Source: Eledone cirrhosa (taxonomy: Eukaryota). From it: DNA of 64,000 bases. Below, piece by piece: positions 1 through 62,017 of the stretch. A model generated the notes under the pieces. That model saw nothing but the letters and a program-made list of their open reading frames with translations, made no database searches and was not told where the DNA came from. Within the stretch, counting starts at the first letter, position 1. Every line of letters begins with the position of its first letter. The position numbers were made by a program, and so were the translations under genes. Where the stretch lies: NCBI GenBank assembly GCA_964016885.1, contig OZ024743.1:58590001-58654000 (forward strand), given 5' to 3'.

Positions 1-620
1 GCTGGGAAGGGTGGCCTGCACCCTCCATGCCATGCTTTATGATCTCGTTGTGAGGCATTGCATCGGAAGCTGCCAACACTGTAACGGCATGACAGTGGGT
101 GGGGACCGAAAGGATCGACAGTGGTACTGCAGCGCCATTTGTGAGGCTCACAATCTTGGAAGCCGAGCTGTTCAGTTGATTGCTAGTCGCAAATGATGGA
201 ACTGCATTGAGCCAGTCACCACTGTGGGTTGGGAAGCCGAGCGGAAACATGCCAGACGTTGCAGGTCGAGTCGGCGCACCAACCCATCTGAAATCATGTT
301 GAAATGATTGGCGTCCTATTTTTTTGGGGGGGGGGGGGCATCTACGAGATAAGAGGGGGATGGACGTTCACAGGGTAGAGGCTGAAGTGCTTTCATATTA
401 TGTAAGGCGGTTTGCGCTCCTCGATCACAGAAATTTCAGTTGTGTCGTAAAGAACTCTGTTGATGAGTATATAGAAAGCAAGATGTTACAGACGAAAAGA
501 CACCAGGCATTGTCAGTGAGACAGGAGTCGGGCTATAGTGGCTGCCTTCAAATGAAATCTAGTATTTTTCTCTAAACTGATTCCATTTCCTCCTTATGGA
601 ATATTGCCTCGCAATTATCA
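1..620 (-). mobile_element. Degenerate CRE-clade (RLE-type) non-LTR retrotransposon fragment
   Basis: Minus-strand translation near 1-220 gives SGDWLNAVPS...RCSTTVDPFGPHPLSCRYS and, after a frameshift, NEIIKHGMEGAGHPSQ. This resembles the WL.A.PS, zinc-knuckle and pre-RLE region of CRE-like elements. The right boundary is uncertain. Confidence 0.6.
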
Positions 621-767
621 GGTCTTAGGTTTGATCTCACGGTGTGGCACATTGGCCGGTATCATGAGCAGTGAGTAGCATTTACCATAGTTTGAGGTTG
701 TAGGCTTTGGTAATGAGATTGGGTAGAGAGGAACCGTTTGGAAACCCTGGCGGATGAACTGCAACCT

Positions 768-768
<1 letters not shown>

Positions 769-847
<79 letters not shown>

Positions 848-912
848 CCTCTCTCTCTCTGTCTTCGTCTGTGTATATATATATATATATAATAAATATT
901 ATATATATATAT
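769..912. repeat. (CT)n and (TA)n microsatellites
   Basis: Directly visible dinucleotide runs. Confidence 0.95.
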
Positions 913-913
913 A

Positions 914-1740
914 GAATTTAGGAACAGTTTAGGTATGATACATTTTATTACTAATTATATCTAAATGTTTCTTCTCTCTTCATAATGTATTTTTAACTCT
1001 GATACTGGTTCAGTCTGGTTCAAACTGAATTGGTCTGTCCCAGTCATTCATTGAGCAACATCGGTGAAGTTGGCACCCTTAACTCACAGTTGGGTGCGGA
1101 TGCATTCATGTATATATGTGTGTGTCCGCATGTATCTGTGTGTTTCTAAATATATTAATAACTCCCTCTGGTCGAGCAATCTTTGAAGTGTGGGGACAAC
1201 TGGAAAGCTTCCATTACTCATACTTCTCGCCTTCTTCACTACCTCTTCTACGGCCTCGATATGAATACCCCCTCCGCCTCCGTGGTATTTTCTTCGTGGT
1301 TATAAGAGGCTTAGCTCTGTTTCTCGACCGTTATATCGCGTGACTGTCTCCCCCTCCGCCTTTTGGGATTCTTTCTCACGTCGTGTAGACGCGTTCTTGA
1401 GACTAGTAAAATGAGGTATCCTCTTGATAAGTCGGCAGACCTCGCAAGGACTCTATATCTTTGATATATTGTTTTTGTTTATGCCACGAAACTACGTAGT
1501 CGAGGAATTTAGGAACAGTTTAGGTATGATACATTTTATTACTAATTATATCTAAATGTTTCTTCTCTCTTCATAATGTATTTTTAACTCTGATACTGGT
1601 TCAGTCTGGTTCAAACTGAATTGGTCTGTCCCAGTCATTCATTGAGCAACATCGGTGAAGTTGGCACCCTTAACTCACAGTTGGGTGCGGATGCATTCAT
1701 GTATATATGTGTGTGTCCGCATGTATCTGTGTGTTTCTAA

Positions 1741-1741
<1 letters not shown>
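914..1741 (+). mobile_element. Non-autonomous HHR retroelement (retrozyme or Penelope pLTR type): 591-bp unit plus ~237-bp direct repeat
   Basis: 914-1150 is repeated essentially exactly at 1505-1741. The element has (TA)n on both sides and an HHR at the unit junction. Confidence 0.8.
1419..1506 (+). ncRNA. Type I hammerhead ribozyme, U3-A8 core variant
   Basis: tcctc-TTGATAA-gtcggca...tgccac-GAAA-ctacgtag-TC-gagga: stem I tcctc/gagga, palindromic stem III, GUC cleavage triplet. Confidence 0.75.
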
Positions 1742-1792
<51 letters not shown>

Positions 1793-1797
<5 letters not shown>

Positions 1798-1999
1798 AAC
1801 CAGTAAGACCCCGACAGCTGAGCTCAAGCCGTTTCGACGGCTAATTCTGGACTGCTAATTCTAGTCCAGAATTAGCCGTCGAAACGGCTTGAGCTCAGCT
1901 GTCGGGGTCTTACTGGTTCCTATTACCCACTCTACTACCTCAAGTATTGAGTACTTTGGTGCGTTATGGTCCACCTGGTTCCTTACCACATTTCCTTCG

Positions 2000-2001
<2 letters not shown>
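1793..2001 (+). mobile_element. Fold-back mini-element: 61-bp perfect inverted arms plus tail, carrying the 3' half of an HHR
   Basis: Arms at 1793-1853 and 1863-1923; GAAA-cggcttgagctcagctg-TC motif; sits in (TA)n; homologous to 41762-41948. Confidence 0.75.
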
Positions 2002-2063
<62 letters not shown>

Positions 2064-2272
2064 TTATATATATATATATTTATTTAGGTTTGTTGGTTTA
2101 CCACTGGATAGAACTGGTCATTCCTTATGGTCAACCTCGATGTAATATTATGGAGAGCACTCAACGTAATGCAACTCACCCGTCTTCGTTTGTGTACTTG
2201 GTTGTGCGAGTACGGAGTTAATTATTATAAAATAACAGGAGGCTGGACTGGTGTAATTCCTTAAGGTTTATT

Positions 2273-2330
2273 ATACTATGATCATTTCAATGACCGGGTT
2301 CAGTATGAATCCGGTGACATCATCAGGTAT
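2273..2330 (-). ncRNA. Type I hammerhead ribozyme in a Penelope-like terminal fragment (~2085-2435)
   Basis: Reverse complement: atac-CTGATGA-tgtcaccggattcatactgaacccggtcatt-GAAA-tgatca-TA-gtat, with palindromic stem III. Confidence 0.8.
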
Positions 2331-2436
2331 TCGAAATATAACAAAGGAATATAATAGACAAAATCCATGGGGCTGAAAATCAACGACATTAGGGCGACCG
2401 AACATTTAGCAGCTTCTATCCCGGTCGGCCGCCCCA

Positions 2437-2534
<98 letters not shown>

Positions 2535-2649
2535 TATTATATGTATATTATATATATATAAATTATATATATATTATATGTATATATATAGATATATATA
2601 GTGACGAAACATAAGTCAATTGCATGAACTCATAATCCTTTATTTACTG

Positions 2650-2689
<40 letters not shown>

Positions 2690-2693
<4 letters not shown>

Positions 2694-3154
2694 GGAAAAA
2701 ATTAAACGAAATTTCATTTCCCACTCTAAGTACGGCTGTTACTTAAATATAAGTATGTACACGTACATACATATATGTATACGGACGTATATATATGTAC
2801 GTATGGATTCACCGAACATTTATTATAATGCTCGGTGTGTTTGTAAACAAACATCCCGTATTAAGCCGTAGTGACCAGCAACCATCGTTGCTCGTTTGTT
2901 CAACACTGACAAAGGAACACTGTACTAGTTACAAGGTTATTAGCTATCGTCAGCAACGTATACCTTCCTGCCAGATTGTTGAACGTATATACTTACCTTA
3001 TGCATATTAACGGCTGAGTAGCCCAATTTGCATATCGAGTGGGTTAATCGGCCGGGTGCACCGAAAACGATAAACGGAAAAAATGAAACGAAATTTCATG
3101 TCCCACTCTTAGTACGGCTGTTACTTAAATATAAGTATGTACACGTACATACAT
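2690..3154 (-). mobile_element. ~380-bp unit with ~80-bp terminal direct repeat and a degenerate HHR (2917-2959)
   Basis: 2690-2772 is repeated at 3072-3154. The body is homologous to 33365-33650, which has an intact HHR; here GAAA is mutated to GTAA. Confidence 0.7.
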
Positions 3155-3699
3155 GCATCAAAACCTATATTAAAAAATGACAAGTCTTCCGGTTCATACC
3201 TTTATACATACTCATATATTTACTTGCCTACATACATGCATACGTACTTACATACATACATACATATTTATATATACATACATACTGTACATAGAAAATA
3301 CACACGTATGTATATACAAATATCCATACATAAACACAAGTATACAGCGTCGGAAAATAATCATGATTACGTATGAATTACAGAATTATAGTAAACAGCA
3401 ACTGTATATTTTATCAGCAAACTGATCTCGATTCTAAATAAAAAACAAGAACGCAGGTGTGCCATTCAAGTAAAACTATTAAAAGATTAGAAAAAATCTC
3501 ACCCGCACTTTCTAACTCTTAACTCACGCCTATACCTTGGTATGCGATTTATCGCCACATCCTCGAAAATTTTAGAAAATGCGTTACATACATTCAATTG
3601 TCAAATGCGGATTTCGTGATATGCGAAGTGTGTCGACGAATTCCCTGAACTTAGGTGGGTTTGTATGTTTGTGTGTGTGGGATTACCACATGATCGGGT

Positions 3700-4300
3700 T
3701 CAATTGCTAATCCATTTCGAAATATACCCCTTGTGTCTCCATACACTTAGGCCACTGATCCTTCCACTTCTCAAAACACATTTAGAATGGCTCTCTGTTC
3801 CGCGGTCACAGTCCGCATGATGTCTTCTCGGCTCTTGAATTTGAGAACAAAGTAAAGTCAGAGAGAACAACATCTCCAAGTTAGGGAGCGAGGAAAATGA
3901 GTGAAATGCTTTCTTTTGTCAAACATCTTAGCTGACATGCAATGAATAACATCGAGTATTGTCATGATGCCGTTGCTAGTTTCGAGTAATCTACATTCCC
4001 AGTCCCTTGCACCGAATTACACCACGAAGACATTGGAGTATTTCCTGATAATACTCCTTCATAACTCTCTATCTATTTGGTGTGCATTCATTATCCACAA
4101 CGCCTCGTTAGTAAAAGAAAAGTCAGATTGTCCTGGATTTTGTTCCACACCTGACATTGTTTTGGGGGTATTGACAACGCTGTGTTCTTCTACTATGATG
4201 AAGCCTTGGTTTCCTGGTCGTAACAGTACACCCACGTTTCATCTCCAGTTATGACTGTATTCAGGAACTCAGAACACTTGGCAGTCTCCGGTGAACAAAG
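3700..4300 (-). pseudogene. Mariner (Tc1/mariner) transposase relic
   Basis: Minus strand encodes VITGDETWVYCYDQETK, EYYQEILQCLRGVIR...HHDNTR and FEKWKDQWPKCMETQGVYFE, interrupted by stops and frameshifts. Confidence 0.8.
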
Positions 4301-7077
4301 AATAGTGCTGTACATAGCACGATGACTCTCTGACAATGATTGATGCATACAGTGAGCTCACCAAAAAAACACACATGTGCAAGAAAGTATTTGGCTCCAC
4401 TCTGCACACATTTCCTCTCTAATGGCATTATTTCCCCACTAGGAAAAATAAAGTCAGATTCTTTGTCGACAGACTACGAATTCATCCGATACCTCACAGA
4501 ACAAAGCAGTAAGTTTATACGTGTAATGTATAACAAAACAATGATGATGGATAATGTTAATGAAACCTAATTAATGAATATGCATGTTTTTTTTTCAATA
4601 TACGACCTTGTCACCTTTTATAGCAAGGTAGTTGGAAATGTCTCTAAAATATTTCGCGAATGCAGATCTTTTGCTCAAAGTTGCAAAAGCTTGTATTAAG
4701 ATGTTATAATTCCACGTGAGTAAAAAACGTTGCCTTTTCTGGGAAAACTTTCGTAGAGTACACCGTTTAAATTATGAGACAATCGATTTTATAATTACAA
4801 TTTTGCCTGCCATCATTTAAAACCCCGATAAATTTGAATAGTCATGTAGTGGTGGTGATGTGAGGGCAGCGTTTTTCTGATTATCTGTATGAATACTTCT
4901 GTTGCGATAAAACAGAGAATGTTTCTTTGCGTGTATTAATATTAGAATTACCAATAGAAGGGAATAACGTAGAGGTGTATAGAACTATATCCCAGCTAGC
5001 TGATTAGATTTATAAAAGTACTTATTATCTATATGACTGAACCACTAAATACCTGATAAATTGTTATTCGATGATGTAAGATAAATCTAGCTTAATATTT
5101 AAGTTTTGGAATCTAAAATATTTACATTGGTTCTAACTATCATTCTTTTCTTTAAGATATTTAATAACAATTACATGGTTTACGTAATTATGTTTCCTAC
5201 CAATCGTAGCTATTTCTTGTAAATTAATACTATCTCACACTCTAATAGGTAATGTTAATATTGTACGAGAAATATCTATGGTATGTGTGTGGATATTAAT
5301 TTCATTCACATTTATGCTAGAAACTCCTTGTGAGAGTCAGCGGCCTCGTCCTCCGATCCGATCTTAACTTGGCACTGCCGGCCTATCTCTCCTTAACCTC
5401 CTCCAGCCGCACGCTCATCGATGAGATTCTCCGAAGATGACAGAACTTGGCGTGACCCGAGAACACGAATCAGCTCTGGGTGATTGGACTGAGGAAAGCC
5501 TTGCAGTCCCCCAGTGTACCTATGTCCAACGCAACTGGGACAACGTCTAGTGAAAGTCTGCCTTCAGGCGAATCGATAATTCCATGGACGAAAACAGGCT
5601 CGCCTGCTTACGCTCCACCCCGCAACCAAACAGTAGCGCTTGGCTCCATTCAGTGCCTTCCTCATCAACCAGTATCCTTCTTGATGAGGAGTGCACTCGA
5701 ATTGGAGTGGAAGAGCACCTCGGACTTCACACGTCTTAGCCTTACAGATGCCCTTGTGGAGATGTTATCGATATTTTCGGTTTGTACCCGTTAACTTGCC
5801 GCATTAGTGCCGACCGCCTTCGACTGCGGTGATGACAAGCGTCCCGACATTTTAATCCTATTCACATTCGAGGGGGCCAAATCCCTATTTAGGGACGCGA
5901 TGTGCAACGACTCGTTCTCCTCCTCCAACCTTGCCGCTTCGACCACAGACCCAAGCTCCACTACCCGAAACGCGGGTGAGAGGAAGAAAATTAAATACTT
6001 GGGTCCTGACTTCTTTGCATCGGTCTCCGTCGAGACTTCTGTCTCCTTTGCTCCCTGACCAGCTAATTTCCTCTGTAAATTTGGGAAGATGGTGATTCGC
6101 TTGATGAAGGAGCCTCGTGAGGTCGGGTAGCATCTGTAACAGGTGTGTTTGGAAACTCTTTGCGGCAACGCTTTTGCCGTTTCGTCCGCTTGGCTGAGGC
6201 ACCGCTCAGACTGGTGTGTAGTGACTGTACCTCACCATTCCCTTCCTTTTGCAGTTTGATCCTTCTTTCTTTTTCTCCTTTTCCTTTTCTCTTCTCTTCT
6301 TCCTTTTCTGTTCCCTTTCGTAGTAGTGTGTTTTGTATTTTCAGATATTGCTCAATTATTTTTATGTAAGGTCAATGGCCTTTCATGATATTGTGAGATG
6401 TTTGTATAATGAATAAATGATGAATTTTCAAATGCGTAGTATATCTTGAAAAATATAAAATGAAACAAAAAACGTTCCTTTATGAGAGAAAACCTGTATA
6501 TGATATCTGAAAAAGGTGATTGTGCGCTCTTTGACAAGCAATTAAATCTTGAATTCTAATCATGGTTCTATTTGATTAGTGAAATATTTGCTAATATAAT
6601 GTCATACTGCATCCTTTTTTCAATAGTTTCAATGACGGGCAGCGGCTAACTGAGAGTAATCATTCAATACATTTCAGACTAATCAGACATAGAAACTTAT
6701 TTTATTCATTAAATATTTATACATCGTATGTAAACGCAAATGTTCATTAATCCATATACAAATATAATCGAAACACCGGTGACTAAAGCCTCAAATACAC
6801 TAAGCTTCCTTAATAAAGAGTCTAAATTTGGGAGAACCTATGGGATGAAAAATAAAACATGTAATATAAACATACATGTGTCCGAATCGTAAGGACTAGT
6901 TTTGCTAGGGTGAAACAATACTAACTACACCAATATGGTTTGCCAGACTTAATTTAATGTAGTAAATTAAGAAAAAATAATAACAAACCTATATTAGGCA
7001 ACTGCCTGAAAACACCTAGACAGTTATGGAAACTGTTCCGCAAAATCATATTAAGCGAAGTCATCACCATGTCTCAT

Positions 7078-20530: not shown

Positions 20531-21088
20531 TAACTGTTAATTATTTGTAACGAAATAATTTAGTAGCAAATGAAAAAAAAAAACATGGCATTCTTAATGA
20601 TTTTAAGCAAGTAATGTAGTAGGAATTTTACAGATGTGATTTTGTTAAAATGTATTAGCTGTAAAATTGATATTGAAAGCCCATAGCTTAACGATTTGGT
20701 TATTAGGGTCAAGATAAGCTGATCATTCGTTCGATTTGGGGAGGTGTCCTTCAGCAAGGTATTTCCGCATGATAATATATTTACGCAGCGCCCGTCTACT
20801 GACCTGTAATTCAAAGTTTCTGCCACATCAAACCGTATCTATTGAGAACTACCTTAACTGTGCCCCTGTCAGTGGAATTCTCAGGTACTTGCTGGATTAT
20901 TTCACGAAAAGTTTGTTCCGTATTTTAAACAACTGCGACACTTATCGTCGGAACTGACTGATATCTATTAAACAACGTATAATATAGTGGATAGGTTCCT
21001 TGAGGGCTGAATTTGTTGTATTATTTCCCGTTAGTAGGTCGGTGGATTTGGCAGTATCAGTAGAGCGTCGAACAATATACATTGCAGC

Positions 21089-21216
21089 TAAACATTTGTC
21101 CACGTTGATTATACCCCATCATATATATATACATATATATATATACATATATATGTATATATACATATATATGTATATATATATGATGGGGTATAATCAA
21201 CGTGGACAAATGTTTA
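21089..21216. repeat. 31-bp perfect inverted repeat enclosing (TA)n, following a SINE head at 21041
   Basis: aaacatttgtccacgttgattataccccatc / gatggggtataatcaacgtggacaaatgttt. Confidence 0.8.
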
Positions 21217-22715
21217 ATGTGTTCGCTTCCCAATAATTAAGCCCACTGTTGAATCTCACTGCGTCATTTACCATAACTTCCAGTTGATCCATGCCTTGTA
21301 TGTAAACAATTAAGACTAAGTCTCTCCTCGGAATGCTCACCCACTTCCATATTAATTTGAGGAGGAGATCGTCTCATTGAATGAACAATTGGCAAAGCTG
21401 TCCTCGAAATCAAAGATGGTTCATTCCTTTCATATATATATACACACATGTGTGTGAGTGACTTATATTAGTAAGTGGGCAATACTGTGTAGAGAGGCAT
21501 TGATTAATGTGTTTATGTTCAGTGTTAGTATTTAATCAAAAAATTGAGTGAAGGAAAGCAAAGGCTCTTGTATTAATGGTAAACACATTTCGGTACACCG
21601 CCATTATCAAGTATGTTTTGGTCTACGGAGAAACCTTTCGTCACGTTTTATGATAGGTTATTTTAACCCCGAGTTCTCTATAACGTGTGGGCTGTTAAGG
21701 TACATACATATCTTCCACCTGTTTTATTTTTCTATAGAAGAAATTATCTTGGAAATTGACTGAACAGATTTATGTTGAAGCGCGGAATTAATTTTACCTT
21801 GACAATATATGTTGTTTGTTTACAGTGTGAATCTTTCTATTCCATAATATTGAATGTCGATAATTACTTACGTAGGAGTAAATTCCCTATTTCATAGAAA
21901 GCATGTTTTTCTGTAAATGACTGGACATAAATGAAATTTGCTTTTAAATACTTGTGGCTAACACGATATATCAAATAAAAAGTGTCCGGATAATAGACTT
22001 TTCGAACTGCGAAATATGTTGCCTTGTGAGTCAGTTAGAAATCAGTATTAATATCCTTGAAAATTGCTGAAAGGACACAGTTGTGTAGTTCTGGGTAACA
22101 GTATGTATCACAGAACATTTATACTGGAAACTAAACTATTATTGTGTTAAGACGTATATCTAAGGAAAGCTGTTAGTTCGGCACTATAGCATTTGTGACA
22201 TTTAAAGAGTCCTGAAGAACAATTGGTGTGTCTTAGTGTATGGCTCACCAATAAGCTTACTCATCGTATGTACAGTGGATTATTCAAGGTGTTGTCAATA
22301 ATTAGTCATTTGGAAGATGTTTTCAAAGGATGCATGCAAAGCTAACAAAATGCCATTGATATATAATATTGTAAACGAACGCTGTAGCAATAACCTTTAA
22401 TGAAATATTTCTATATGAATGTTGTGAAAGAAGATAAAACCTTTTAGTTACATAAAGATGTTTTGATGTCGTTAGTATTGAAGTAGAAAGGTTTTAATTT
22501 TTTTTCGTATTTTGTTTAGTTTATTATGTATAAAATAGTTACTATTCAAGCTATTCAATGTCAAACTCTCGTGCTGGGGGTTAATGTTGAGAGATAATGA
22601 TATTTTCTGTTTTTATAGTTTGTGTTGCTGTCTGTCTAATTCTTTCTTAAAATGAAGTCTATTTTTCTTGATTATATGTAAATGTCGTTGTGTAGTGGTA
22701 TATTAATGTTTATAC

Positions 22716-22865: not shown

Positions 22866-23328
22866 TCCTCTATATCTCCTTTTCAATTCCATTCGCTCAC
22901 CCTCTATCCTTCTCTGGAAGAAATCTATTGTATTCTTAGCTGGAGCGAAGATGTGCTCCGCCAGATTTTAAAATGTCCTAGAAAAGGATTATGTCAATAT
23001 GGCGCCCATACAAACCCCACAGGTGTTACGGGACTATGCATAAAAGAAAATACCAAAAACATGGTAAGTCATATCACTATATATCCGTTGTAGAGCACAT
23101 ACACACACATATACATACACAAACACACACAAACACACACACATACATACATACATACATACATACATACATACATACATAGAGAGAGACAGATAGACTG
23201 ACAGACAGACAGAAAGGTGTTGGATAAATATATAAATGTACAGCTAGATACTTCAGTTTGTTAACGTATATCTCAAGACAAGAATTGAAATTAAAACTCT
23301 GCAGATAATGTGTTTTATATTCTTTCAG

Positions 23329-23694
23329 GTAAAATTCTTTTTGACCTTGACCTGCCAGTTACAGCTGAGGTTTGGCTTCGGCGAGCGACCCAGATGAGTC
23401 AACGAAAAGACCTAGAAGCTGCTACGATGTTCCAGAAGGTTCGAGTTCACCGCTTATATCATCCTCTAGTAAAACACTCTAAAGTAAAGATCGACTTCAC
23501 AGAATTTGGTCGCGCCGTGGTAGCCAAAGAAGACATAAAGGCTGGTGACATTGTTCTCACTGATCAACCTGTTGTATTTGGTCAGCTGTTAGAGAAGGAA
23601 ACAGTTTTGGCCTGTCCAAATTGTGCCAAATCTTTAATGACAGCACAAGATTACTTTGGATCAAGCGCCTTGAAAAAGAATAAATCTTTGCAAG
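23329..23694 (+). CDS. SMYD5-like SET/MYND methyltransferase, internal exon (TPR-like end, SET-N, first half of MYND)
   Basis: Acceptor ttctttcag, donor gtaagt, phase 1/1; encodes GRAVVAKEDIKAGDIVLTDQP and CPNC. Upstream exons were not identified. Confidence 0.88.
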
Positions 23695-24547
23695 GTAAGT
23701 CGCACCGAAGGCTGTCAATTATTATTTTCTAATCGTTATTTCTACTCACATCATATTACGAAATGTTATAAATGTATTAAAGGCCCATTACGTCGTAAGA
23801 GAGGTCAGCTTGCAGTGAAAGGCATATATGGATTTCCGGTCGTTGCTCCTGGAAAAAGTGTCACCAATTTTAGTGTGATAGGGAGAAGGTATTGAGCTCA
23901 GAATACACAGAAACGGAAGGGATTCCACAAAGCATCATGCTTGACTCATTTTAACGATTCCCCCTAATACACTACCCACCTAGCGTGGTGCTTTATTTTG
24001 TCAATTCCTAAATAATGAATGGCAAAGTTGGCCTCGGTGGGATTTAATCTCTCATATTAAGGTTTAATGAATATAGTATCTCAGTTATTTTTCTTTTTCT
24101 CATTCAGCAGAATGAAAATGAATTCCTTTTTATTGAATATTAATATTTCAGTTAGTGAATGTTCGGCAAACTATTACACAATTGGGATTCAAACTCTTAA
24201 ATAATAGTTATTTAGTTTACCAATATTTTCTTCCACTTTTATGTATAGAGGAACCACATCAGTAATTGCTTGTCATCTATATAACTGTATATACATGCTA
24301 ACATGATTCACACTCCATCTCTATTCCCCCATCTCTCTCTCTTTCTTTCTCACTCTCTCTCTCTCCTTCTCCTATATATATATTAATCAGAATATAATCA
24401 TGGGTGAAGTGTGATTAAAAAAATATATGACTAATAACTGAAATGAGATTGCATCATTGCTTTTTTTATGATACTGTTTGTTCGTTTTACACATTTCTAG
24501 CTATGTGGTCTCTTACAAATGATGTCTTAAATATCTTTTGTATTCAG

Positions 24548-24890
24548 CCGCTGTTTCCAAACACTGGCCAAACATACGACGGGTCCCATGTCAAGGATGC
24601 AACGAGGAAATTTATTGTTCAGAAAACTGTCGCAAAGAAGCATGGCTAAATTATCACCAAATCCTCTGCCCATCTACAAATACTGAAGCTCACAAATTGT
24701 ACGATATATGTCGTAAAATTAAAGAACTATCCGGTGAAGGTCAAACGATATGGAACGCCAGTTTTAGTCCAATTATGCTGGCCCGTATTTGGGCAGCCAT
24801 CATTTGCCATGCTAAAAAGCTTGCCACCGAAAATGGCTCATCCATACCAACACAGTCCCAGTGGGCGATTGCTAAATCCCCATATAGACG
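24548..24890 (+). CDS. SMYD5-like gene, next exon (second half of MYND)
   Basis: Acceptor tattcag, donor gtacag, phase 1/2; encodes CQGC...YCSENCRKEAW...HQILC. Confidence 0.88.
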
Positions 24891-25169
24891 GTACAGTCAT
24901 TTACTTACACTCTATTCGAATTAATCAATGAAGAATATTGAGAGAATTACTAAAGCTATAAATGATTTGTTTTACTAAGATAGAATTTTATATTTTATAA
25001 CTTAAGTCTGTAATATGAGTTGATTTGTTTTATAAAACCAGAGCTGGTTTTAGCCAGTCTGGTATCAGAATGTTCCTCATGTATTTCTGTTTCCTCAAGA
25101 TTACTTTCATTCAACCCAGTTGATGATGACCATGCATAACCGTAACCAATTAAAATAAAGAATAAGATA

Positions 25170-25460
25170 TATCAATTGAAATACAACACTGGGTATTTGG
25201 AGCCACTGTGTCAATTCTGAAACAAATATCTAAATATTGAAACCGGTGTTTCAATTTTGAACACACTATTTCAATGTGAAACCCACTATTTCAATTTTGA
25301 ATCAACTATTGTAACTTTATCGCCATTATTTTTTATGTTTAGAACCCACTATTTAAATTTTAACGGAATCATTTTAATTTTAAACACATTGTTTAAACTT
25401 TGAAGCAGCCATTTTAATTTTGGACCCATCGCTTCAATTTTAATCAAATATTTAAATTTC
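25170..25460. repeat. Degenerate ~21-bp intronic minisatellite
   Basis: Recurrent tttcaattttgaa(a)cccacta-like units. Confidence 0.7.
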
Positions 25461-25540
25461 CCAAATCGATAATAACGTTTGCATTTGTGAAAATACGTCT
25501 ATTGATAGAAAATAACTTGTGTTTTCCTTGTATTTTCCAG

Positions 25541-26240
25541 ATTTATCGCATATGGAGCTCAGGGTGTAGCAAATAATTATACAGGGATGCATCAAGTTAT
25601 GAAAGATGTATTCAGTGGTGCACCAGAAGGTTTGTGTTACGATATAACAGTACGTGAGTTCGAAGGACGTTACTTACAAATGGCGTGTAATGTGCAATCG
25701 TTTTCTGACGGGAAAAACCCATTGCATTGTTTCTTAAAGGCAATCAGCACGCTATCTCATTTTGCGCAGCTTTCTGATCTTGTCGACGTTGATAACATCC
25801 CAGAAGCCAATTTTGCAGGAGTTTTTCCTGTGCAATCTTGCTTCAATCACAGTTGCGCAAATTCTGTCGAAGTAATGGATGGTTTATCAAATGGACGGCC
25901 TGGAATTCATCTACGAGCACGACTGAATATCAAGGCTGGTGAGGAATTATTTAGCACGTATATCGATACAACAATTCCACGTCGTGAAAGAAGAGCTTGG
26001 CTATTCAGAGGCTACAATTTCTGGTGTCAATGTCTGCGCTGCAAATTTGAAGGAGACGGACCAGAAGCGTGTGCAAATTGTGAAACACAAGCGCCAGAGG
26101 GCAAACAATTTCCAGCCTGTGGAAAATGCCGGAAAGTATGGTACTGTTCACCAAAATGTCAAAAGATTGCCTGGAAGGCTGGACACAAGAAAATTTGCAG
26201 TATGACCCATTCAAAACTTTGCAGTTCTAATCTTTATTAG
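25541..26240 (+). CDS. SMYD5-like gene, last exon (SET-C, post-SET, extra C-terminal MYND)
   Basis: Acceptor tattttccag in phase 2; encodes FNHSC, GEELFSTY, FWCQCLRC, CANC...CGKC...YCSPKCQ...W...HKKIC; TAG stop. Confidence 0.92.
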
Positions 26241-28851: not shown

Positions 28852-29340
28852 TTATGCAGATCGATCCGGTATCACTAGAGCGGAGAGTGTGCATTTACGT
28901 TGATGTCGGTATGCCATGATTATTTCAGACTTGAGGTTGACTGCGTCGCCCTTAATTTTTATTATCTCCATATCCTCTAACAGGCATAACTTGCACTTCC
29001 TTTCTCCGACCGAGTACGCATTCGCATGCTGAACAATACCCCAGCTCGGGTCATATTCAATGCCATTGTCTTTGAGTCTCCCCACTAAGTCCGTCAATCT
29101 GGTGGAATGTCTCTGGTTCCTGTCTTTGAACGAGCTCTTGTGGTTGTACGTCCTCGACTTAAAAGTCGCGGATGTAGCTCCGATGTATGTGTGGCTATCG
29201 TTTATGCGTGGTAACCACACATCTGTATACAACGCTTTTTGTCAGGCACATTCCCTGCAAGGGGCACTCCTCATGGAGACGGCAGTTACATGTCTGTGCA
29301 TCATTTTTGCAACTCCCGTTACGTGTTCCTGGCGTCTTAT
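28852..29340 (-). pseudogene. 5'-truncated Penelope-like GIY-YIG endonuclease relic; 3' non-coding part probably extends to ~27300
   Basis: [22 protein letters not shown] / HTYIGAT...FKSR..NHKSSF...CKLCLLE...VNLKSE, frameshifted; same type as the endonuclease at 12032-12460. Confidence 0.85.
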
Positions 29341-33486: not shown

Positions 33487-33529
33487 ACGATGTACAAGTT
33501 TCAAGCTTATTAGCTATCGTCAGCATCGT
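33487..33529 (-). ncRNA. Minimal type I hammerhead ribozyme (within repeat 33365-33650)
   Basis: Reverse complement: acgatg-CTGACGA-t agct aata agct t-GAAA-cttg-TA-catcgt, with a perfect 6-bp stem I. Confidence 0.8.
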
Positions 33530-41761: not shown

Positions 41762-41943
41762 ATAACGAAGGAGTTGTGGTAAGGAACCAGATGGACCATA
41801 ACGCACCAGAGTACTCAATACTTAGGGAGTTGGTAATAGGAAAAGGTATGACCCCGCAGGCAGAGCTCAAGCCGTTTCGACGGCTATTTCTGGACAGCTC
41901 AAGTCGAAACGAGTTGAGCTCTGCCGTCGGGGTCATACTTTTA

Positions 41944-41948
<5 letters not shown>
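41762..41948 (-). mobile_element. Fold-back mini-element of the same family as 1793-2001
   Basis: Tail 41762-41835 is the reverse complement homologue of 1925-2001; arms ~41836-41881 and 41903-41948. Confidence 0.8.
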
Positions 41949-41987
<39 letters not shown>

Positions 41988-41992
<5 letters not shown>

Positions 41993-42204
41993 GTGTTTAC
42001 ACAACAGTTAGTTCACCATACCGAGAACAATTGTTTCGCCTTAGCGGATCCTCAGCTCGTAAATATTACGAGCTCAGGATCCGCTAACGTGAAACAATTG
42101 TTCTCGGTATGGTGAATTAACTGTTGTGTAACCACCTCTACCCAACTCGTCCCATGGACTGAGTGTCTACCACTACGGATATTACCTTCTAGTGTTCTAC
42201 CACT
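41988..42204 (+). mobile_element. Fold-back mini-element; HHR core intact on the - strand at 42022-42059, mutated (CTCAGGA) on the + strand
   Basis: Arms 41988-42062 and 42067-42140. Reverse complement of the left arm: cgag-CTGAGGA-tccgctaaggc-GAAA-caattg-TT-ctcg. Confidence 0.75.
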
Positions 42205-42261: not shown

Positions 42262-42443
42262 TTGTTTCTACTTTAGGCACAAGGCCAGCAATTACCAAGT
42301 GCATTACTGGTACTTTATTTTATCGACCCCGTAAGGATGAAAGGCAAAGTCAACCTCGGCGGGATTTGAACTCAGATCGTAAAGGGACGTAACTATGCTG
42401 GAAAGCATGGCGTCCGACCCTCTACCGATACTGCCAATCCACT
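42262..42443 (-). mobile_element. tRNA-derived SINE
   Basis: Reverse complement homologue of 39057-39245. Confidence 0.8.
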
Positions 42444-46638: not shown

Positions 46639-47320
46639 CAAAAGATGAGTTACAAGCCGTTCAAACATATATATATATTATGTGTTTGTTGAAATAATCA
46701 AATTAAATTAATTCAACAGTTATACTCACATAGGAATAATGAGGTTGTCACCCAGAAGATTGACAAGTCGCCCATAAATATGACTAATAGCATTAAGAAT
46801 GCCATGAACGACACCACATATTTTAAAGTTTGATTTTGAAAGTAGGTTTATAATTAATAATTTTCATTATGCTTCGTAGCTCTCTCGGCGGCCTAGTTGG
46901 AGCAATCATGGATGGTGGTGATCCTGGTCTGAAGTTCGATCCTGGTTGGAAGTATGGTTCCCGGTAAACCTTTTCAGTCCAGAGGGTGCCAACCACTGAT
47001 GGGTGTCAACATAGGATCGGTAGCTTTTACAGGGTATTTTCTTGTCATTTCTTAGGCAGTTTCCTTCTTTACTGCTACTTTTACCTGCTTTGCTTTTTCT
47101 GTGTTTTTCATTTCACCAGTAAGGGAAACTTCTAAAATGTGTAGTTCATTACTGTATCCATTTGCATCGTTTATAACGGAGTATGACCTTGTGTTGCTTT
47201 CATGTTTCAAAACGAGTTTGATCTTTCAATCATGTGCTTCCCTTACATATGTAGATAATCCAATTGTTGCAGTTTTCAAAGAAATATCTAACTGGATTAA
47301 TCCACGTTCTCCTACTTTCC

Positions 47321-47409
<89 letters not shown>

Positions 47410-47616
47410 GGCGACCTACGTAGTAAATCGTATCATCGTGAGCTCCGCAAAGGTTTGTTATTTCCGTTTGTTAAAAATTGTCATTTATGGAAAATTTTAT
47501 TGTTAACTGTTTATAAGCGCACATACATTGTTTTCAGAAAAGGACACCCAAAAAGATTGGGGCCTTGTGCCCAAAATTTAAACTTTTATTATTATCAAAA
47601 AATTTCTTTGAAAAAA

Positions 47617-49608
47617 ATGGCTAATTCACCTCTGCACGAAGCAGCTGAAAGCCTTCCTCACAAATTAACACCTCACACCGACACCACCATTGTAAATGTT
47701 ACTACGTATGCCAACACAAAAAAAAATATAAGCACTAGCAATATTTTAAATTTGTCTCAGGCAGACATTCATTTCCCGCCATTACCAATAACTGCAGGTG
47801 TTAAAGCCTCCACCACCACCACCACCGCGACAACCACCACCACCACCACCACCACCGCGACAACAGAAACAAAAGAAGAAAAAAATAAATTAACTCGTGA
47901 TATCGAAATGAAATCAAGCAAAATGGACTCTTCCCCAACAAAGACGACTGACGTCACCACCACCACAACTGAAACTAAAATTAATATTAACGATAGCAAC
48001 AACAACAACAATGACATTATAATCCCCCCCCTCAGTTTCGCCAGAGTAGCAAAACAGTTCGAAGCATTTATGGTAACTCAGGAGGATTTAGAAAATGCCA
48101 AACAAATGGTAAAGAAAGATGGGTACAGGGTCAGCCTCACCCCCCACCTAATAAAATGGAGCATCGGCGCCTTTTGCACCGTGTCGTATAGAACAATAAA
48201 TGTAAAATCGCGCCGAGTGGAACGGGCATCCGAGTCCCAAATCCAAAAAGCTTTGGGACATGTGTGGGAAAGAAAAACCCACATCAGACGTGGGCAAAAG
48301 TATGGAACCGTGGACGTGTTCTTGAAACACCAGAGGAGGCTAGAGAACACTCCATGGCCCCATTAAGAAGTGACGACTTCACACTCGTCCCAAGCTATTG
48401 TGGCCAGAGACTCGTAAAGATCAGGGTGACCCAAGTTCCACCGGCCATCGAAATTCCCTAGCTAATAGCAGCCGTCCTCGCCGGCATCGAAGCCAACACA
48501 AAAATAATAGCAATGGCAAAAGAAAAGCAGGAGAACTGGTCCGGATCTGGGATGGAGCTCCTGATCCAAGCGGAACAAAAAAGCATTGAGGAGATCCCAG
48601 AGGTAATAGACCTCACTGACGGCAGCCACCTCACGGTAATTGTCGAGGGCAGAAGACCTAGGTGTGTCGTTTGTGGTGAAGGAACCCACCTAAGGGCTTT
48701 CTGCCCTCAGGCTAAAAGGTTGAGGCCACCTCTCCTACCCACCCAGTGACACAACCATCAACACCACCAGTAGCAGAGATGGCAGAAACAACTGTAGCAG
48801 CAACAACAGAAGCAACTATAACAGCAACAACCCCAGCAACAGTAGCAAAACCAACACCATCACCACCACCAGCAAAGCCAACACCACCACCACCCAACGC
48901 TTCAGAACTAGCACCAGCGCCTACACCATCCACCACGCCACAACCAAAACTAACGCCTGTGGAGGATTTTCCACTCCCCGGCCTATCACAACTGGAGACA
49001 GATTGTGACGACGAGGAGTGGGAAACGATATCCGGAAAAAAAAAAGAAACCAAAAAAGAAAAAAATTCTCTTCCTTCCCCCTCCCAAAACAAAATACAGA
49101 GGGAAACAAATAAACTAAGAAACAAAAAAGTTAGGACAGATATGCCACCATCCACACCAGCATCACCAACCCCATCAACCCAAACACCAACACCATCACC
49201 ATCATTAACTCCAACACCACCATCACCTACACCACAAAAGTCACCAAAATGCGAAACAGAAACAAACCCACAACAAACTCAAACAAAACAAAACAAAACA
49301 ACCAAAACGATACACACTACACAGCATTAAATTTGAACAACAAGCAATTATTACACTACATCCAACACAACACCAGCATCACAGAAAAAGACTACACAAC
49401 AACCCCAAAATTCACACCACCTCCACACATACAAATCACTCGCATCACACAGAAAACGTACGTGACACTAAAACAAAAATTCCCCAAAGACATCGAAGAC
49501 TTCCGACAAGCACTCTCCAGGAGGATTTATAAGGACATCCTTCCTGAGGAGGCCACAAGCAGTGAAAAGGATGGAAAAACCGTCCTTCCCCTACGAGAAG
49601 TAAGGTAA
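47617..49608 (+). pseudogene. ORF1 (CCHC knuckle CVVCGEGTHLRAFC, Pro/Thr-rich tail), disrupted
   Basis: Frameshifts and a TAG relative to copy 2. Confidence 0.85.
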
Positions 49609-49642
49609 GTGGTCTTTCCCATCTTTTCCACTCCTTTTCAAC

Positions 49643-52600
49643 ATGACCTCACTCAGAATAGGCAGCATAAATGCGCGTGGCTTGTCTCGTCATGGAAGCA
49701 GGGCCACCTGCTCAACGCTCTCAGGTCACTAAACATAGATGTAGTGGCCATCAGCGAGACCAGAATCTCCGAAGCACAGGCTTTCGCACCGATCTTCGGC
49801 GGCTACGATGTGTACGCATCTCCCAGCCGTCCGGGATCGGGGGGAGGAGTTGCTGTGCTTTTTCGGAGAGGTTTGGATCTTGCCATACGGGCCATCTTCC
49901 TGGACCCAGAAGGTAAATTGGTGGTGCTGGACGTGACCAGCGGAGACGAGCAAGCTTTCAGGTTAGTGGCCGTCTATGCCCCGACAGGAGCAGGGCGGCC
50001 TGATTTCTTCCGGCGTCTGGAGACCTTTCTTGGAACGTCCCGCTCTTTAGTGTTAGTGGGCGACTGGAACGGGATCTTAGATGCACGCTGGGATTGTGTG
50101 GGATTAGTGGATAGGGAAGGAGGGTGCAAGAGTCTCACCAACCTGCTCAGACATTTTGAACTGTCTGACAGGTACCGAATGGATTTCCCGAATGTACCAA
50201 TGTGGACTTGGACAAATCGCATAGGGTCAACCAGATCATATCTAGATAGAGTATTTTGTAGGGAAATAGATAGGTCTAGCATAGGCTGTCCACAATTCAA
50301 GATAGTCAGCTACACGGACCACAAATTCGTGATCTGTGCTTGACTTAGATAGGCTCCATAGGCGAGGACCCGGCTACTGGAAGCTAAACGCGTCCTTACC
50401 AGCGCGCAAGGCCTACAGAGACTGGATTAGCGAACTTGTTAAGCGTGCGTTGACGGGGGCCATCGTCAACAACAAGTGGTAGTTTGCTCTGAAAAGAGCA
50501 ATTAGAATAGAGTCCATTAGGTTTAGTAAGAGTTTAGCAATAGAGAAAAATAGAGCAGAGGGAGAACTAGTTAGAAAACTAGATGAGGCGCTTAGCAAAG
50601 GCATCGCGACCGACGTACTTGCGGCGAAATTGGCCCTTGACCAATTCTTCAATGCAAAGCACGAAGGCTGCATTGTCAGAGCTAGGGTGCGTGCTCTCAG
50701 ACACGAGGGGACGAAAGCCGTTCAATGGGCCCGAGTGGCGGAGGCGCGTCGTGGCAACAAAGCCACGATCCGGTCTTTGGTGGACCACGACGGACGCATG
50801 CTACTCGATCCCGGGCAAATGTGTGAAGCTTTTCAGCGACACTTCGCTCAACTGTTCGGGGGCAGTGGCGAGCCGGATCGAGGGATGGTCTTTAGTGTCT
50901 ACCTCGATTGACTGCCGCGGCTTTCGGCCACTGAGGCGGAGTGTTGCGAAAAGCCGATAACAACCGCTGAAGTACGGGATGCAATGACTAGTTGCACAAG
51001 GGGTAAATCGCCTGGTTTGGATGGTCTGCCCTATGAACTTTACATAAAAATGCCAAACTTGTTCGGAGGCCTCTTGGCGGACGTCTACTGCAACTGGCAA
51101 CAGAACGGGAGAATTCCCAGCTCTGTGAGCCGAGGAGCGGTGGCGCTGCTGAGAAAGGATCCGAACAAGGGGGATAACATAGATAATTTTAGGCCCATAA
51201 CTCTGCTAAACACAGAGTTCAAGATTTTGGCCAAGGTGCTAGCAAAGAGGTTGGCGCTTGTCGTTGGTGGTCTGGTGGGAGAGGCACAGACATGCACCAT
51301 TCCCGACAGATCCATCCACGACAACCTCCACCTCATGCGATACATTGTAGAGAGGGTAGCTAGGGAACCTGGCACGGGTGGGTCTTTAATCAATTTAGAT
51401 CAGTCGAAAGCCTTCGATAGGGTCGACCATCGTTACCTAGAGGCAGTCCTGAGGGCGGCTGGCATTGGGCCCGTCTTCAGAGGCTGGATCGCTGCCATGC
51501 ACAGCAACATCTGCTCTGTAGTGAGAGTGAACGGTCACCTTTCGGAACCGTTCAACATCATGCGCTCGGTCCGCCAAGGATGTACCCTCTCGTCACTATT
51601 GTACGTATTGACTCTAGAGCCATTACTGCACAAACTTGAGACGTTGAGGGGGATCCCGCGCGAACTAGGATGCGGAAGATCCGTGTCAGCATATGCCGAC
51701 GATGTCACCGTAGTGGTATCGAACGCCAAACACATCGAGGCGATCGGCACTACACTAAGAGAATACGAAGCGGTGACAGGAGCAATGATCAACCAGGAAA
51801 AGTCAGTGGGCCTGCAGCTCGGCACCTGGAGAGGCAGGTCCATGCCGTCCAACAGCGTCGTCGGGCGCTGGACAGACGGACCGGTTAAATTGCTAGGGGT
51901 CTGGTTCGGTCCAGTCCTCCAGACGGACAAAAACTGGGACGAGGTGACGAGCAGGGTGGCTTCTCTCACCCAGAAATGGGCCGAGAGGAAGCTATCCCTG
52001 AAAGGTCGAGCGGAGGTGGCTAACGCGTACATCGCGTCCGTCATCTACTACCGCCTGACCGTCGTACCTTGTCCTAAGCCCCGCCTGACTGCGCTGGAGC
52101 GTTTGCTCTTTCGCTTCTTGTGGAAGGGACGCGCTCCGATGGTCAGGCGGTCCATCTGCTGTCAACACCCGCTACGTGGAGGGCTGGGCATGCCGTGGCT
52201 GATGATGCGCAGACACGCGTTCAGGCTACGACATCTCCACCTCTTCCTCGACGGTGATCAGGTGTGGTCGCCGTTTGCTAGACACGTTTTTTCCCAGCTC
52301 GTTTCCTTGACGGAGCTGCAGTCCTGGGTCAAGCGAAGACCGAGAGGGAGCGCTTGGAGACTGGAATGTCTTCAGGCGCTCACAGCCCTCGACCAATCGG
52401 GCAATGTGATCGGTGGAAACTCCACCTTGGCGTTCTATAGGGGATTAGTGGAGGGGAAGAGCGACGACGTACTTGGAGAAACTCTAGCCGTCGACGAAAA
52501 TCAACTAGCCAATCTCTTCGGAAGGACTTTCGGGCCGGGGCCTATGGACAACTTACAGAAATCCCTGGCCTGGCAGTGCTACCGGGGTGCTTTGCCAGTT

Positions 52601-53040
52601 CGGGATAAACTTTACAGGCATGGAGGTGCCGTCAGCCGGGCATGTCCGAGATGCGCACAGGGCGACGAAACCGTCCTGCACGCACTCGTCCAGTGTCCGA
52701 GCATTGCTGACCTGTGGGTTTAAGTCGAACACCTGCTGTCACGTGTAGGACGGATCCAGCTATCAGCTGAGTCCATCGTGAGGATTGCCCCGCCCTCTTC
52801 CTTTAGACGGGAAGGGCAGGCAGTTTTTATCTGTCTGGTGCCCACGGCGAAAGAGATAGTATGGTGGACACGTTTGAAAGGGCTCTACGGTGATGCCCTG
52901 ATTAACTTTTTCAAATTCTACTGAAAAGGAAAATCAGGGTAGAGAGGGAAATGCTCTCTTCCCAGCATTTTGTTGAAAGATGGGTGAGAGAAGCAAGTAT
53001 GGCCCGAATGAATGGGCCTTCACTGAGTATGTGTCTGTAA
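49643..53040 (+). pseudogene. ORF2 (APE endonuclease, reverse transcriptase), disrupted
   Basis: SET, VYAP, GDWN, LDR, TDH, GYWKLN, KSPGLDG, RPITLLN, KAFDRV, RQG, YADD, CPRC; several stops and frameshifts. Confidence 0.92.
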
Positions 53041-53313
53041 ATTAAAGGTGGAAAACTGGGAGAGGGCACTTGCCCTGGTGGTCAGGGCCACTGTGGTCTT
53101 TTAATGGGGTTTCTCCACAAATGTCCCTCGGAAGTCTCCCCCCTATTGGGGAATTTTTCTTTGTTATTTTATTTCATCCTCTGTTTTTTTACACGCAGAA
53201 ATGCCCATTTGTACCGTTCTGTATTGTCCTGTACTCTCCTTAATGTGTACTTCATGTAAACCCTTGTGGTTAATAAAGAAAACATTATTATTATTATTAT
53301 TTTTATTATTATT

Positions 53314-56300: not shown

Positions 56301-57057
56301 ATTAGTGGAGGGGAAGAGCGACGACGTACTTGGAGAAACTCTAGGCGTCGACGAAAATCGACTAGCCAATCTCTTCGGAAGGACTTTCGGGCAGGGGCCG
56401 ATGGACAACTTCCAGAAATCCATGGCCTGGCAGTGCTACCGAGGAGCTTTGCCAGTTCGGGATAAACTCTACAGGCATGGAGGTGCCGTCAGTCGGGCAT
56501 GTCCGAGATGCGCGCAGGGCGACGAAACCGTCGTGAGGATTGCCCCGCCCCCTTCCTTTAGCCGGGAAGGTCAGGCAGTTTTTATCTGTCTGGTGGCCAT
56601 GGCGAAAGAGATAGTATGGTGGACACGTTTGAAAGGGCTGAAGACGAGCACTTACCTATTCGGTGATGCCCTGATTAACTTTTTCACATTTCATTTGAAA
56701 AGGAAAATCAGGGTAGAGAGGGAAGTGCTCTCTTCCCAGCATTTTGTTGAAAGATGGGTGAGAGAAGCAAGTATGGCCCGAATGAATGGGCCTTCTCTGA
56801 GTATGTGTCTGTAAATTAAAGGTGGAAAACTGGGAGAGGGCACTTGACCTGGTGGTCAGGGCCACTGTGGTCTTTTAATGGGCTTTCTCCACAAATGTCC
56901 CTCGGAAGTCTCCCCCCTATTGGGGAATTTTTCTTTGTTATTTTATTTCAACCTCTGTTTTATTTACACGCAGAAATGCCCATTTGTACCGTCCTGTATT
57001 GTCCTGTACTGTGCTTAATGTGTACTTTATGTAAACCCTTGTGGTTAATAAAGAAAA

Positions 57058-57058
<1 letters not shown>
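53314..57058 (+). mobile_element. L1/Tx1-like LINE, copy 2, with RT deleted
   Basis: Same termini as copy 1; ORF1 at 53521-55511; ORF2 at 55546-56814 lacks 2049-bp and 102-bp segments. Confidence 0.92.
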
Positions 57059-57103
<45 letters not shown>

Positions 57104-57111
57104 GTTATTAC

Positions 57112-59263: not shown

Positions 59264-59306
59264 AATAATAATAATAATAATAATAATAATAATTATTATT
59301 ATTATT

Positions 59307-61938: not shown

Positions 61939-62001
<63 letters not shown>

Positions 62002-62017
62002 TATTATTATTATTATT

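Follow-up and report, generated by a model that had tools for sequence, protein, structure and literature searches.

A 591-nt hammerhead-bearing repeat in Eledone cirrhosa with a 5′ end close to its predicted cleavage site: likely relationship to non-autonomous Penelope-like elements and retrozymes

In the window, the whole stretch of 64,000 nucleotides of Eledone cirrhosa DNA that was analysed (contig OZ024743.1, positions 58,590,001 to 58,654,000), a short repeat set in a TA microsatellite is arranged in the order X-Y-X, X being the segment that follows a predicted hammerhead cleavage site and Y the segment that precedes it (Table 1). Direct self-comparison showed that 914-1153 and 1505-1744 are identical at 240 of 240 positions with a period of 591, the identity breaking at 913/1504 on the left and at 1154/1745 on the right. 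The locus contains 1.4 units and a single ribozyme, the first X lacking 3 nt, and the unit itself is composed of X (240 nt past the cut) and Y (348 nt, with the ribozyme at its end). A previous inspection of the letters (here, the sequence-only reading) had described a 591-bp unit followed by a 237-bp repeat of its start, and this description is borne out at the same spacing, the 237 nt being the same repeat minus its final TAT, which is indistinguishable from the (TA)n flank. The first copy begins, as had also been proposed, at the equivalent of 1505, with 1502-1504 missing, although this end is blurred by 1-2 nt since A913 may belong to the target or to the template. No target-site duplication is discernible at the locus, both flanks being (TA)n.

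Table 1. Features of the 591-nt repeat, its predicted hammerhead and the Penelope-like element of the same window.
Feature	Position	Strand	Basis
Left flank, (TA)n-rich, likely insertion target	873..913		sequence
Segment X, first copy; leader past the ribozyme, predicted 3′ product minus its 3 leading nt	914..1153	+	240/240 vs 1505-1744
Segment Y, pre-cleavage part of the unit, terminating in the hammerhead	1154..1501	+	six frames, run junctions, fold z -1.5
Type I hammerhead motif	1419..1506	+	stem I 1419-1423/1502-1506, stem II 1431-1487, stem III 1491-1500
Core UUGAUAA (U3-U4-G5-A6-U7-A8-A9), U3 = 1424, A8 = 1429	1424..1430	+	sequence; same in runs X1 and X10
Perfect palindrome of stem III, 10 nt	1491..1500	+	sequence and predicted energies
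Predicted cleavage site after C1501 (GUC)	1501..1502	+	motif position
Segment X, complete copy	1502..1744	+	fold z about -7; 1741-1744 = inferred reverse-transcription start, just past a long hairpin
Right flank, (TA)n tract	1745..1795		sequence
Penelope-like element, long terminal repeats about 95% alike	16248-8751	-	repeat structure, Atlas, motifs

Translation of the unit in six frames, Y included, revealed no remnant of a Penelope-like element (PLE) protein, and neither an ORF of at least 120 aa in window positions 1-5790 nor a tRNA in 800-2100 was detected. The reverse transcriptase (RT) and GIY-YIG ORF expected between the repeats of an autonomous PLE is absent at 914-1744, so the locus does not qualify as one. 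Conversely, the unit is non-coding, without LTR, of GC content below 50% and with one type I hammerhead, as are non-LTR retrozymes, and it is repeated head to tail, as evidenced by the 1.4 units at the locus and by a closed-loop contig in sequencing run X1. The partial-tandem structure, the 3′ tail past the hammerhead and the AT-rich/(TA)n target are those of non-autonomous PLE derivatives. A possible intron in X (donor-like site at 1524, acceptor-like site near 1604) was set aside as a bare consensus match.

The motif that closes Y shows the organization of a type I hammerhead: three helices round the core with the ends in helix I, the residues G5, A6, A9, G12, A13 and A14, the pair A15.1-U16.1, H at N17 and G10.1-C11.1. 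Stem I consists of five Watson-Crick pairs, positions 3 and 8 form a Watson-Crick pair (U1424-A1429), and G10.1-C11.1 corresponds to 1431/1487, at the start of a stem II (1431-1437/1482-1487) in which C1433 bulges out and which is considerably extended. GAAA is located at 1488-1491 and stem III falls in the palindrome, for which the predicted energy is -12.9 kcal/mol as a 10-bp intermolecular duplex versus +1.5 as a hairpin. Thus a junction hammerhead with core UUGAUAA and a cut after C1501, as put forward in the sequence-only reading, is confirmed as a predicted fold, and the stem III that it had called palindromic is a perfect palindrome. Its view of U3-A8 as a compensatory alternative to C3-G8 agrees with PMC3088659, according to which the variant occurs in nature and is active in vitro, but the rarity that it implied was overstated, as about 1,300 U3-A8 matches are reported for the PLE hammerheads of Schistosoma mansoni in PMC4209133.

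With a descriptor relaxed to accept either core and a stem I of at least 5 pairs, which was drawn up after the motif was seen, dinucleotide-shuffled versions of the unit, examined on both strands, gave a match in 11 of 20,000 cases, and in none of the 20,000 was stem III a palindrome of at least 6 nt. Over the real 64 kb the same descriptor gave two matches with stem I of at least 5 pairs (the motif of the unit and one at 33523, minus strand) and four with at least 4; within the unit itself it matched the plus strand only. The second of these, at 33493-33529 on the minus strand, is a compact match with core CUGACGA and a stem I of 6 bp, which may be real or due to chance. Rfam gave no match at gathering score in the window, and among 45 matches obtained down to E=10 over 800-2500 none belonged to a hammerhead family. 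The motif is therefore missed by Rfam; the cause is not U3-A8 alone, because two canonical-core hammerheads of the window, at 14757 and 9019, likewise went without a match at gathering score. Altogether, the modelled structure suggests that the hammerhead of the repeat is likely a self-cutting RNA motif with a known core variant.

Folded as a circle, the plus strand of the unit reached -173 kcal/mol with z -6.1, compared to z -1.9 for the minus strand (40 shuffles each), in a predicted structure that is branched, not rod-like. The signal sits in X (z -6.9 to -7.1 on the plus strand vs -2.4 on the opposite one), Y having a z of -1.5. Based on this strand-biased fold strength and on the 17 G-U pairs among the 81 of the X fold, the predicted structure points to selection on the RNA. 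One of 15 control stretches (21 were sampled and 6 dropped for microsatellites) reached z -5, on both strands, owing to a DNA inverted repeat; the source of this single strong control fold is an inverted repeat around a TA/CA microsatellite at 21070-21220. A 71-nt hairpin begins exactly at 1502. The catalytic fold is predicted to cost 2.0 kcal/mol in 1410-1512, 5.0-5.6 kcal/mol when 30-90 nt are added and 8.0 kcal/mol in the unit, the circle or the whole locus, and the ribozyme would therefore be mostly blocked by downstream sequence in a long transcript. Such a predicted block suits partial cleavage and could equally mean rare cutting.

The unit or part of it is contained in 20 of 24 listed sequencing runs, corresponding to 17 organism codes and 16 studies, and 14 of those runs contain at least half of its words. 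None of them is listed as an RNA run, a fact without bearing on expression. Four of the 24 were aligned to 1034-1624, which comprises one full unit with both junctions inside, runs X15-X20 (below 0.4 of the words) being excluded. In run X1 the unit is assembled as a single 621-nt contig formed by 591 nt and a 30-nt terminal overlap (the closed loop) with one difference, at 1346, and in run X10 the segments 1515-1744/1154-1295 and 1266-1452 are present and carry the same difference. The identity between the window and these two runs, of organisms A and G, is thus one difference in 591 (99.8%), indicating that the unit represents a real family and that the copy in the window is young. In agreement with the conservation of U3 and A8 that would be anticipated from the sequence-only reading, both letters are unchanged in the two runs that cover them (X1 and X10), in copies that are 99.8% identical, and can be taken as the state of the family. 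A diverged record of X10 (record 14, 151 nt, depth 2) contains 12 differences and 2 gaps over 1480-1584, none of them listed in 1480-1509, the 5′ half of the hammerhead lying outside the record.

The X-Y junction is continuous in both X1 and X10, which implies that it is native to the unit, and the Y-X junction is seen in X1. This observation bears on the alternative that no separate unit exists, either because a 5′-truncated autonomous PLE contributed its terminal part (Y-X) and a further short X was inserted just upstream of it, or because the DNA was duplicated locally. Partial tandems are typical of PLEs (PMC8557442) and the X/Y junction, which reads TAAATATATT, resembles a scrap of (TA)n target, as this alternative would have it; the continuity of the junction in the two runs, together with the fact that none of the listed loose ends falls at 1153 (two were outside the listing), has already largely refuted it, and the probability that we leave to it is minimal.

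The presence of the unit or part of it under so many organism codes is also what would be expected from a replicating or horizontally moving viroid-like circular RNA common to many hosts, with the locus as an integrated copy. The occurrence in 20 runs, the 99.8% identity in organisms A and G and the data of organism F are consistent with this possibility: run X9, a contig set of organism F, contains 0.78 of the words of the unit, and no read of the unit was found in 3.9 Gb of Hi-C data of the same organism (1.94 Gb each from X22 and X23, which amounts to 1-2% of each run, passed through a filter that removes reads). X22 and X23 gave 5 and 3 partial reads, respectively, corresponding to low-complexity patches only, and the mismatch with X9 may reflect contamination, trace DNA, low copy number or presence as RNA only. 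Viroid-like RNAs are characterized by ribozymes in both polarities or by a rod-like fold. In the unit a hammerhead is found on the plus strand only (other ribozyme classes being covered by Rfam alone), the minus strand folds weakly and the plus-strand fold is branched. In addition, the codes may stand for close relatives, trace DNA or cross-contamination, and the spread over 17 of them needs to be checked before it is read as biology. A 23-nt motif of the unit had no match in metagenome and viral contigs; 15 metagenome matches to an 18-nt motif were discarded as chance, since in all 15 the 110 nt upstream lacked a hammerhead core and the similarity stopped at 18-21 nt. We consider a mobile circular RNA very improbable, and just as improbable its fuller version, in which a 591-nt hammerhead circle would move near-unchanged between animal hosts and be written in by Penelope-like enzymes from the ribozyme-cut end; if true, it would mean a retrozyme that behaves like an infectious RNA.

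The PLE on the minus strand of the window serves as a comparator. It contains canonical CUGAAGA minimal hammerheads at the two positions given above, and its RT-like and GIY-YIG-like frames are broken by a stop and a frameshift and include an Asn-rich insert. The GIY-YIG-like C-terminal part was assigned to GIY-YIG clusters by Atlas (0.96), and Pfam returned a family for none of the three PLE-like ORFs, so that the identity of this element rests on the Atlas match, the repeat structure and stretches of the frames that we take to be YRDD, GIY-YIG-like and CCHH motifs. From the downstream cut site of the PLE to its end there are 231 nt, compared with 237-243 nt in the 591-nt element, and the 3′ anatomy of the two agrees. 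Its other end lies 1,528 nt upstream of its upstream ribozyme site, which indicates that PLE copies here need not begin at a ribozyme. As neither X nor Y resembles the sequences of this PLE beyond low complexity, it is a comparator rather than an established partner, and no autonomous partner of the repeat was found among the PLE sequences of the window. A further GIY-YIG-like fragment that by eye resembles a PLE C-terminus occurs at 28852-29241 (minus strand) and was negative in Pfam.

The first copy of the repeat lacks the three leading bases of the predicted 3′ cleavage product, and the 5′ end of this unit copy is unusually near the predicted cut: for a uniform end, p=0.008 for a position 0-4 nt after the cut and p=0.019 for one within 5 nt on either side, values that rest on one post hoc observation. 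It constitutes one hint that the cut sets the start of inserted copies. In record 8 of run X10, 29 of 401 letters are unaligned, apparently upstream of 1515, an edge 13 nt after the cut that may weakly hint at another 5′ boundary or else reflect a clipped variant. The reads matched in X22 and X23 included no 5′ end of the unit, and a hole in X10 at 1453-1514, which straddles the cut, was not used (81% of the run was read, with the filter applied). A literature search for 5′ ends of PLEs or retrozymes mapped to the hammerhead cut retrieved none; subscription journals were thinly covered by it, and families or ends of this sort may be documented in the supplements of PMC4209133, PMC7229834 and PMC11167929.

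The same end might result if an uncleaved multimer served as template and the copy was truncated at random in the usual way, the nearness of the end to the cut being due to chance or to stalling at the ribozyme or at the hairpin that starts at 1502. Truncation at the 5′ end is typical of PLE insertions (PMC8557442; bioRxiv 2026.07.22.740005), the PLE of the window is truncated far from its ribozyme, and cleavage was dispensable in vitro in the anole system (PMC11167929). Considering a p of about 0.01-0.02 for a uniform end and the possible second boundary in X10, we regard random truncation as improbable.

Based on the available evidence, it is on balance probable that the repeat is a young non-autonomous PLE derivative of the non-LTR retrozyme type and that its template was a linear tandem RNA whose hammerhead is predicted to have cleaved the upstream site only. 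In the proposed mechanism a tandem locus of the unit would be transcribed and one ribozyme would cut, probably early in transcription or as a dimer via the palindromic stem III, while the next one would stay uncut, being refolded by downstream sequence. A PLE protein acting in trans would nick the (TA)n tract and initiate reverse transcription within the RNA, where X ends 237-243 nt beyond the uncut ribozyme, two steps that are modelled on the anole PLE. The enzyme would then proceed through X, the intact ribozyme and Y into a further X and run off the cleaved 5′ end, and 3 nt would be lost when this end is joined to the target.

The model draws on the anole Poseidon PLE (Frangieh et al. 2024, PMC11167929), whose reverse transcription is initiated internally, at a stem-loop past the hammerhead, with AT-rich targets and chiefly unprocessed RNA as substrate. 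A 3′ end next to a stem-loop and at a constant spacing downstream of the hammerhead, an AT-rich target and the copying of an intact ribozyme are features shared by both elements. On the other hand, the 591-nt unit has no ORF, its tail extends about 240 nt past the cut instead of 85-92 nt (cut at +26, starts at +111-118), and its 5′ end lies at the cut, a situation unseen in the anole RNA reads.

The sequence-only reading had proposed that a self-cleaved RNA was copied for more than one unit length via a circle or a template jump, a model likewise proposed by Cervera and De la Peña, who invoked circles for more-than-unit PLE copies (PMC4209133). What stands of this proposal is a hammerhead-bearing, retro-copied unit with a 5′ end near the cut; the circle or jump is not needed, since internal initiation past an uncleaved ribozyme on a linear tandem RNA cut upstream also yields X-Y-X. 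A template consisting of a circle or of two fully cleaved monomers, on which copying would start at the end of X, pass the ligated junction or jump, and stop one unit on, is unlikely, if somewhat more credible than random truncation. The closed-loop 621-nt contig of X1, the strong strand-specific circle fold (z -6.1, with the ribozyme sequestered), the accumulation of animal retrozymes as circles (PMC7229834) and the seamless junction at 1501/1502 speak for it. The closed loop, however, could also be assembled from tandem DNA or from numerous loci of low coverage, a circle offers no evident reason to stop at a junction crossed once already, and an exact template jump is an additional step. By analogy with other retrozymes a circular RNA of the unit may form, and the insertion at 914-1744 does not require it.

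The linear-tandem reading has to be weighed against several observations. There is one certain 5′ end, and its coincidence with the cut was noticed post hoc; the PLE of the window starts 1,528 nt upstream of a ribozyme and not at it. According to PMC11167929, cleavage was unnecessary for insertion of the anole PLE in vitro and no reads with a cut end were seen, and in bioRxiv 10.64898/2026.07.22.740005 (Li, Clavereau and Pollet 2026) eight of nine predicted Xenopus retrozyme dimers did not cleave.

A U3-A8 core, a palindromic stem III and copies longer than one unit have all been reported before. The hammerheads of PLE pLTRs (Cervera and De la Peña 2014, PMC4209133), both the Drosophila virilis/shrimp/rotifer type and the S. 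mansoni variant, share with the present motif the type I organization, a helix I of 5 bp, G10.1-C11.1, a bulged nucleotide in helix II, a small palindromic helix III and the U3-A8 covariation, and were described there as acting as dimers; dimeric PLE hammerheads are also cited from Lunse et al. in a review (PMC6765202). In contrast to them, the 591-nt unit joins U3-A8 with a 3-bp stem III, has a far longer helix II and is not attached to an RT/GIY-YIG ORF.

Animal non-LTR retrozymes, tandem non-coding units with type I hammerheads that are expressed as circles (Cervera and De la Peña 2020, PMC7229834), have in common with the repeat the absence of coding content, one type I hammerhead per repeat, GC below 50%, a head-to-tail junction, a strongly self-paired predicted RNA and an autonomous PLE in the same genome. 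The preprint of Li, Clavereau and Pollet argues that retrozymes derive from PLE ends as non-autonomous elements. A length of 591 nt exceeds the 150-450 bp given in PMC7229834 and is within the 51-972 bp of the preprint. The latter reserves ‘active’ for two or more units in succession that all contain a complete hammerhead, an arrangement that the locus, with one ribozyme, does not display. The repeat also departs from animal retrozymes in having 1.4 units with one ribozyme, a U3-A8 core and a 57-nt stem II region, and in its ribozyme being predicted as blocked in the 591-nt circle, whereas those of metazoan retrozyme circles are mostly predicted to be free. Taken together, these comparisons suggest that the element likely works as a non-autonomous PLE or retrozyme does, and that it is not an autonomous PLE.

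In the anole system cleavage was dispensable for insertion in vitro and no cut ends were seen among the RNA reads (PMC11167929); (TA)n targets and tails are known from PLEs, and Craig et al. call the function of their hammerheads unclear (PMC8557442). A precedent exists in the HDV-like ribozyme of R2, whose cleavage fixes the 5′ end of the RNA and hence the 5′ junction, a cut at the element end giving variable, microhomology-primed junctions (Eickbush et al. 2013, PMC3774820). The resemblance is one of analogy only; R2 carries an HDV-like ribozyme and not a hammerhead, inserts site-specifically into 28S rDNA and belongs to a structurally unrelated non-LTR clade. If a young, near-invariant short family had copies that begin at the predicted cut, this would provide straightforward genomic evidence of cutting in the germ line and of a ribozyme that sets the 5′ end as that of R2 does. 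The locus at 914-1744 supplies one such 5′ end, a testable hint.

Other repeats were noticed in the window. A second short family set in (TA)n has copies at 1795-2000 (plus strand) and 41767-41946 (minus strand) that are 88% alike by column, with an apparent hammerhead 3′ half (GAAA at 1881, GUC at 1901-1903 and a 97-nt tail) and the 5′ half of the core missing. In both copies an inverted self-copy precedes the hammerhead half, with perfect 59-bp arms in the first; the point where the inversion sets in is nearly identical in the two, which would fit a cDNA that folded back at stem II. At 41990-42140 a long imperfect inverted repeat with CTGAG/CTCAG-GATCC motifs lies directly after (TA)n and is possibly a fold-back insertion, and a short interspersed repeat at 42300-42400 may be cephalopod SINE-like. 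Exons of a host gene with SET and MYND domains (SMYD-like) were identified at 23295-26240 (plus strand). Finally, 47056-63900 is occupied by a cluster of non-LTR retrotransposon pieces that includes an L1/Tx1-like partial tandem (RVT_1, zf-RVT) and three minus-strand RT-endonuclease copies, two of them near-identical at a spacing of 2,675 nt.
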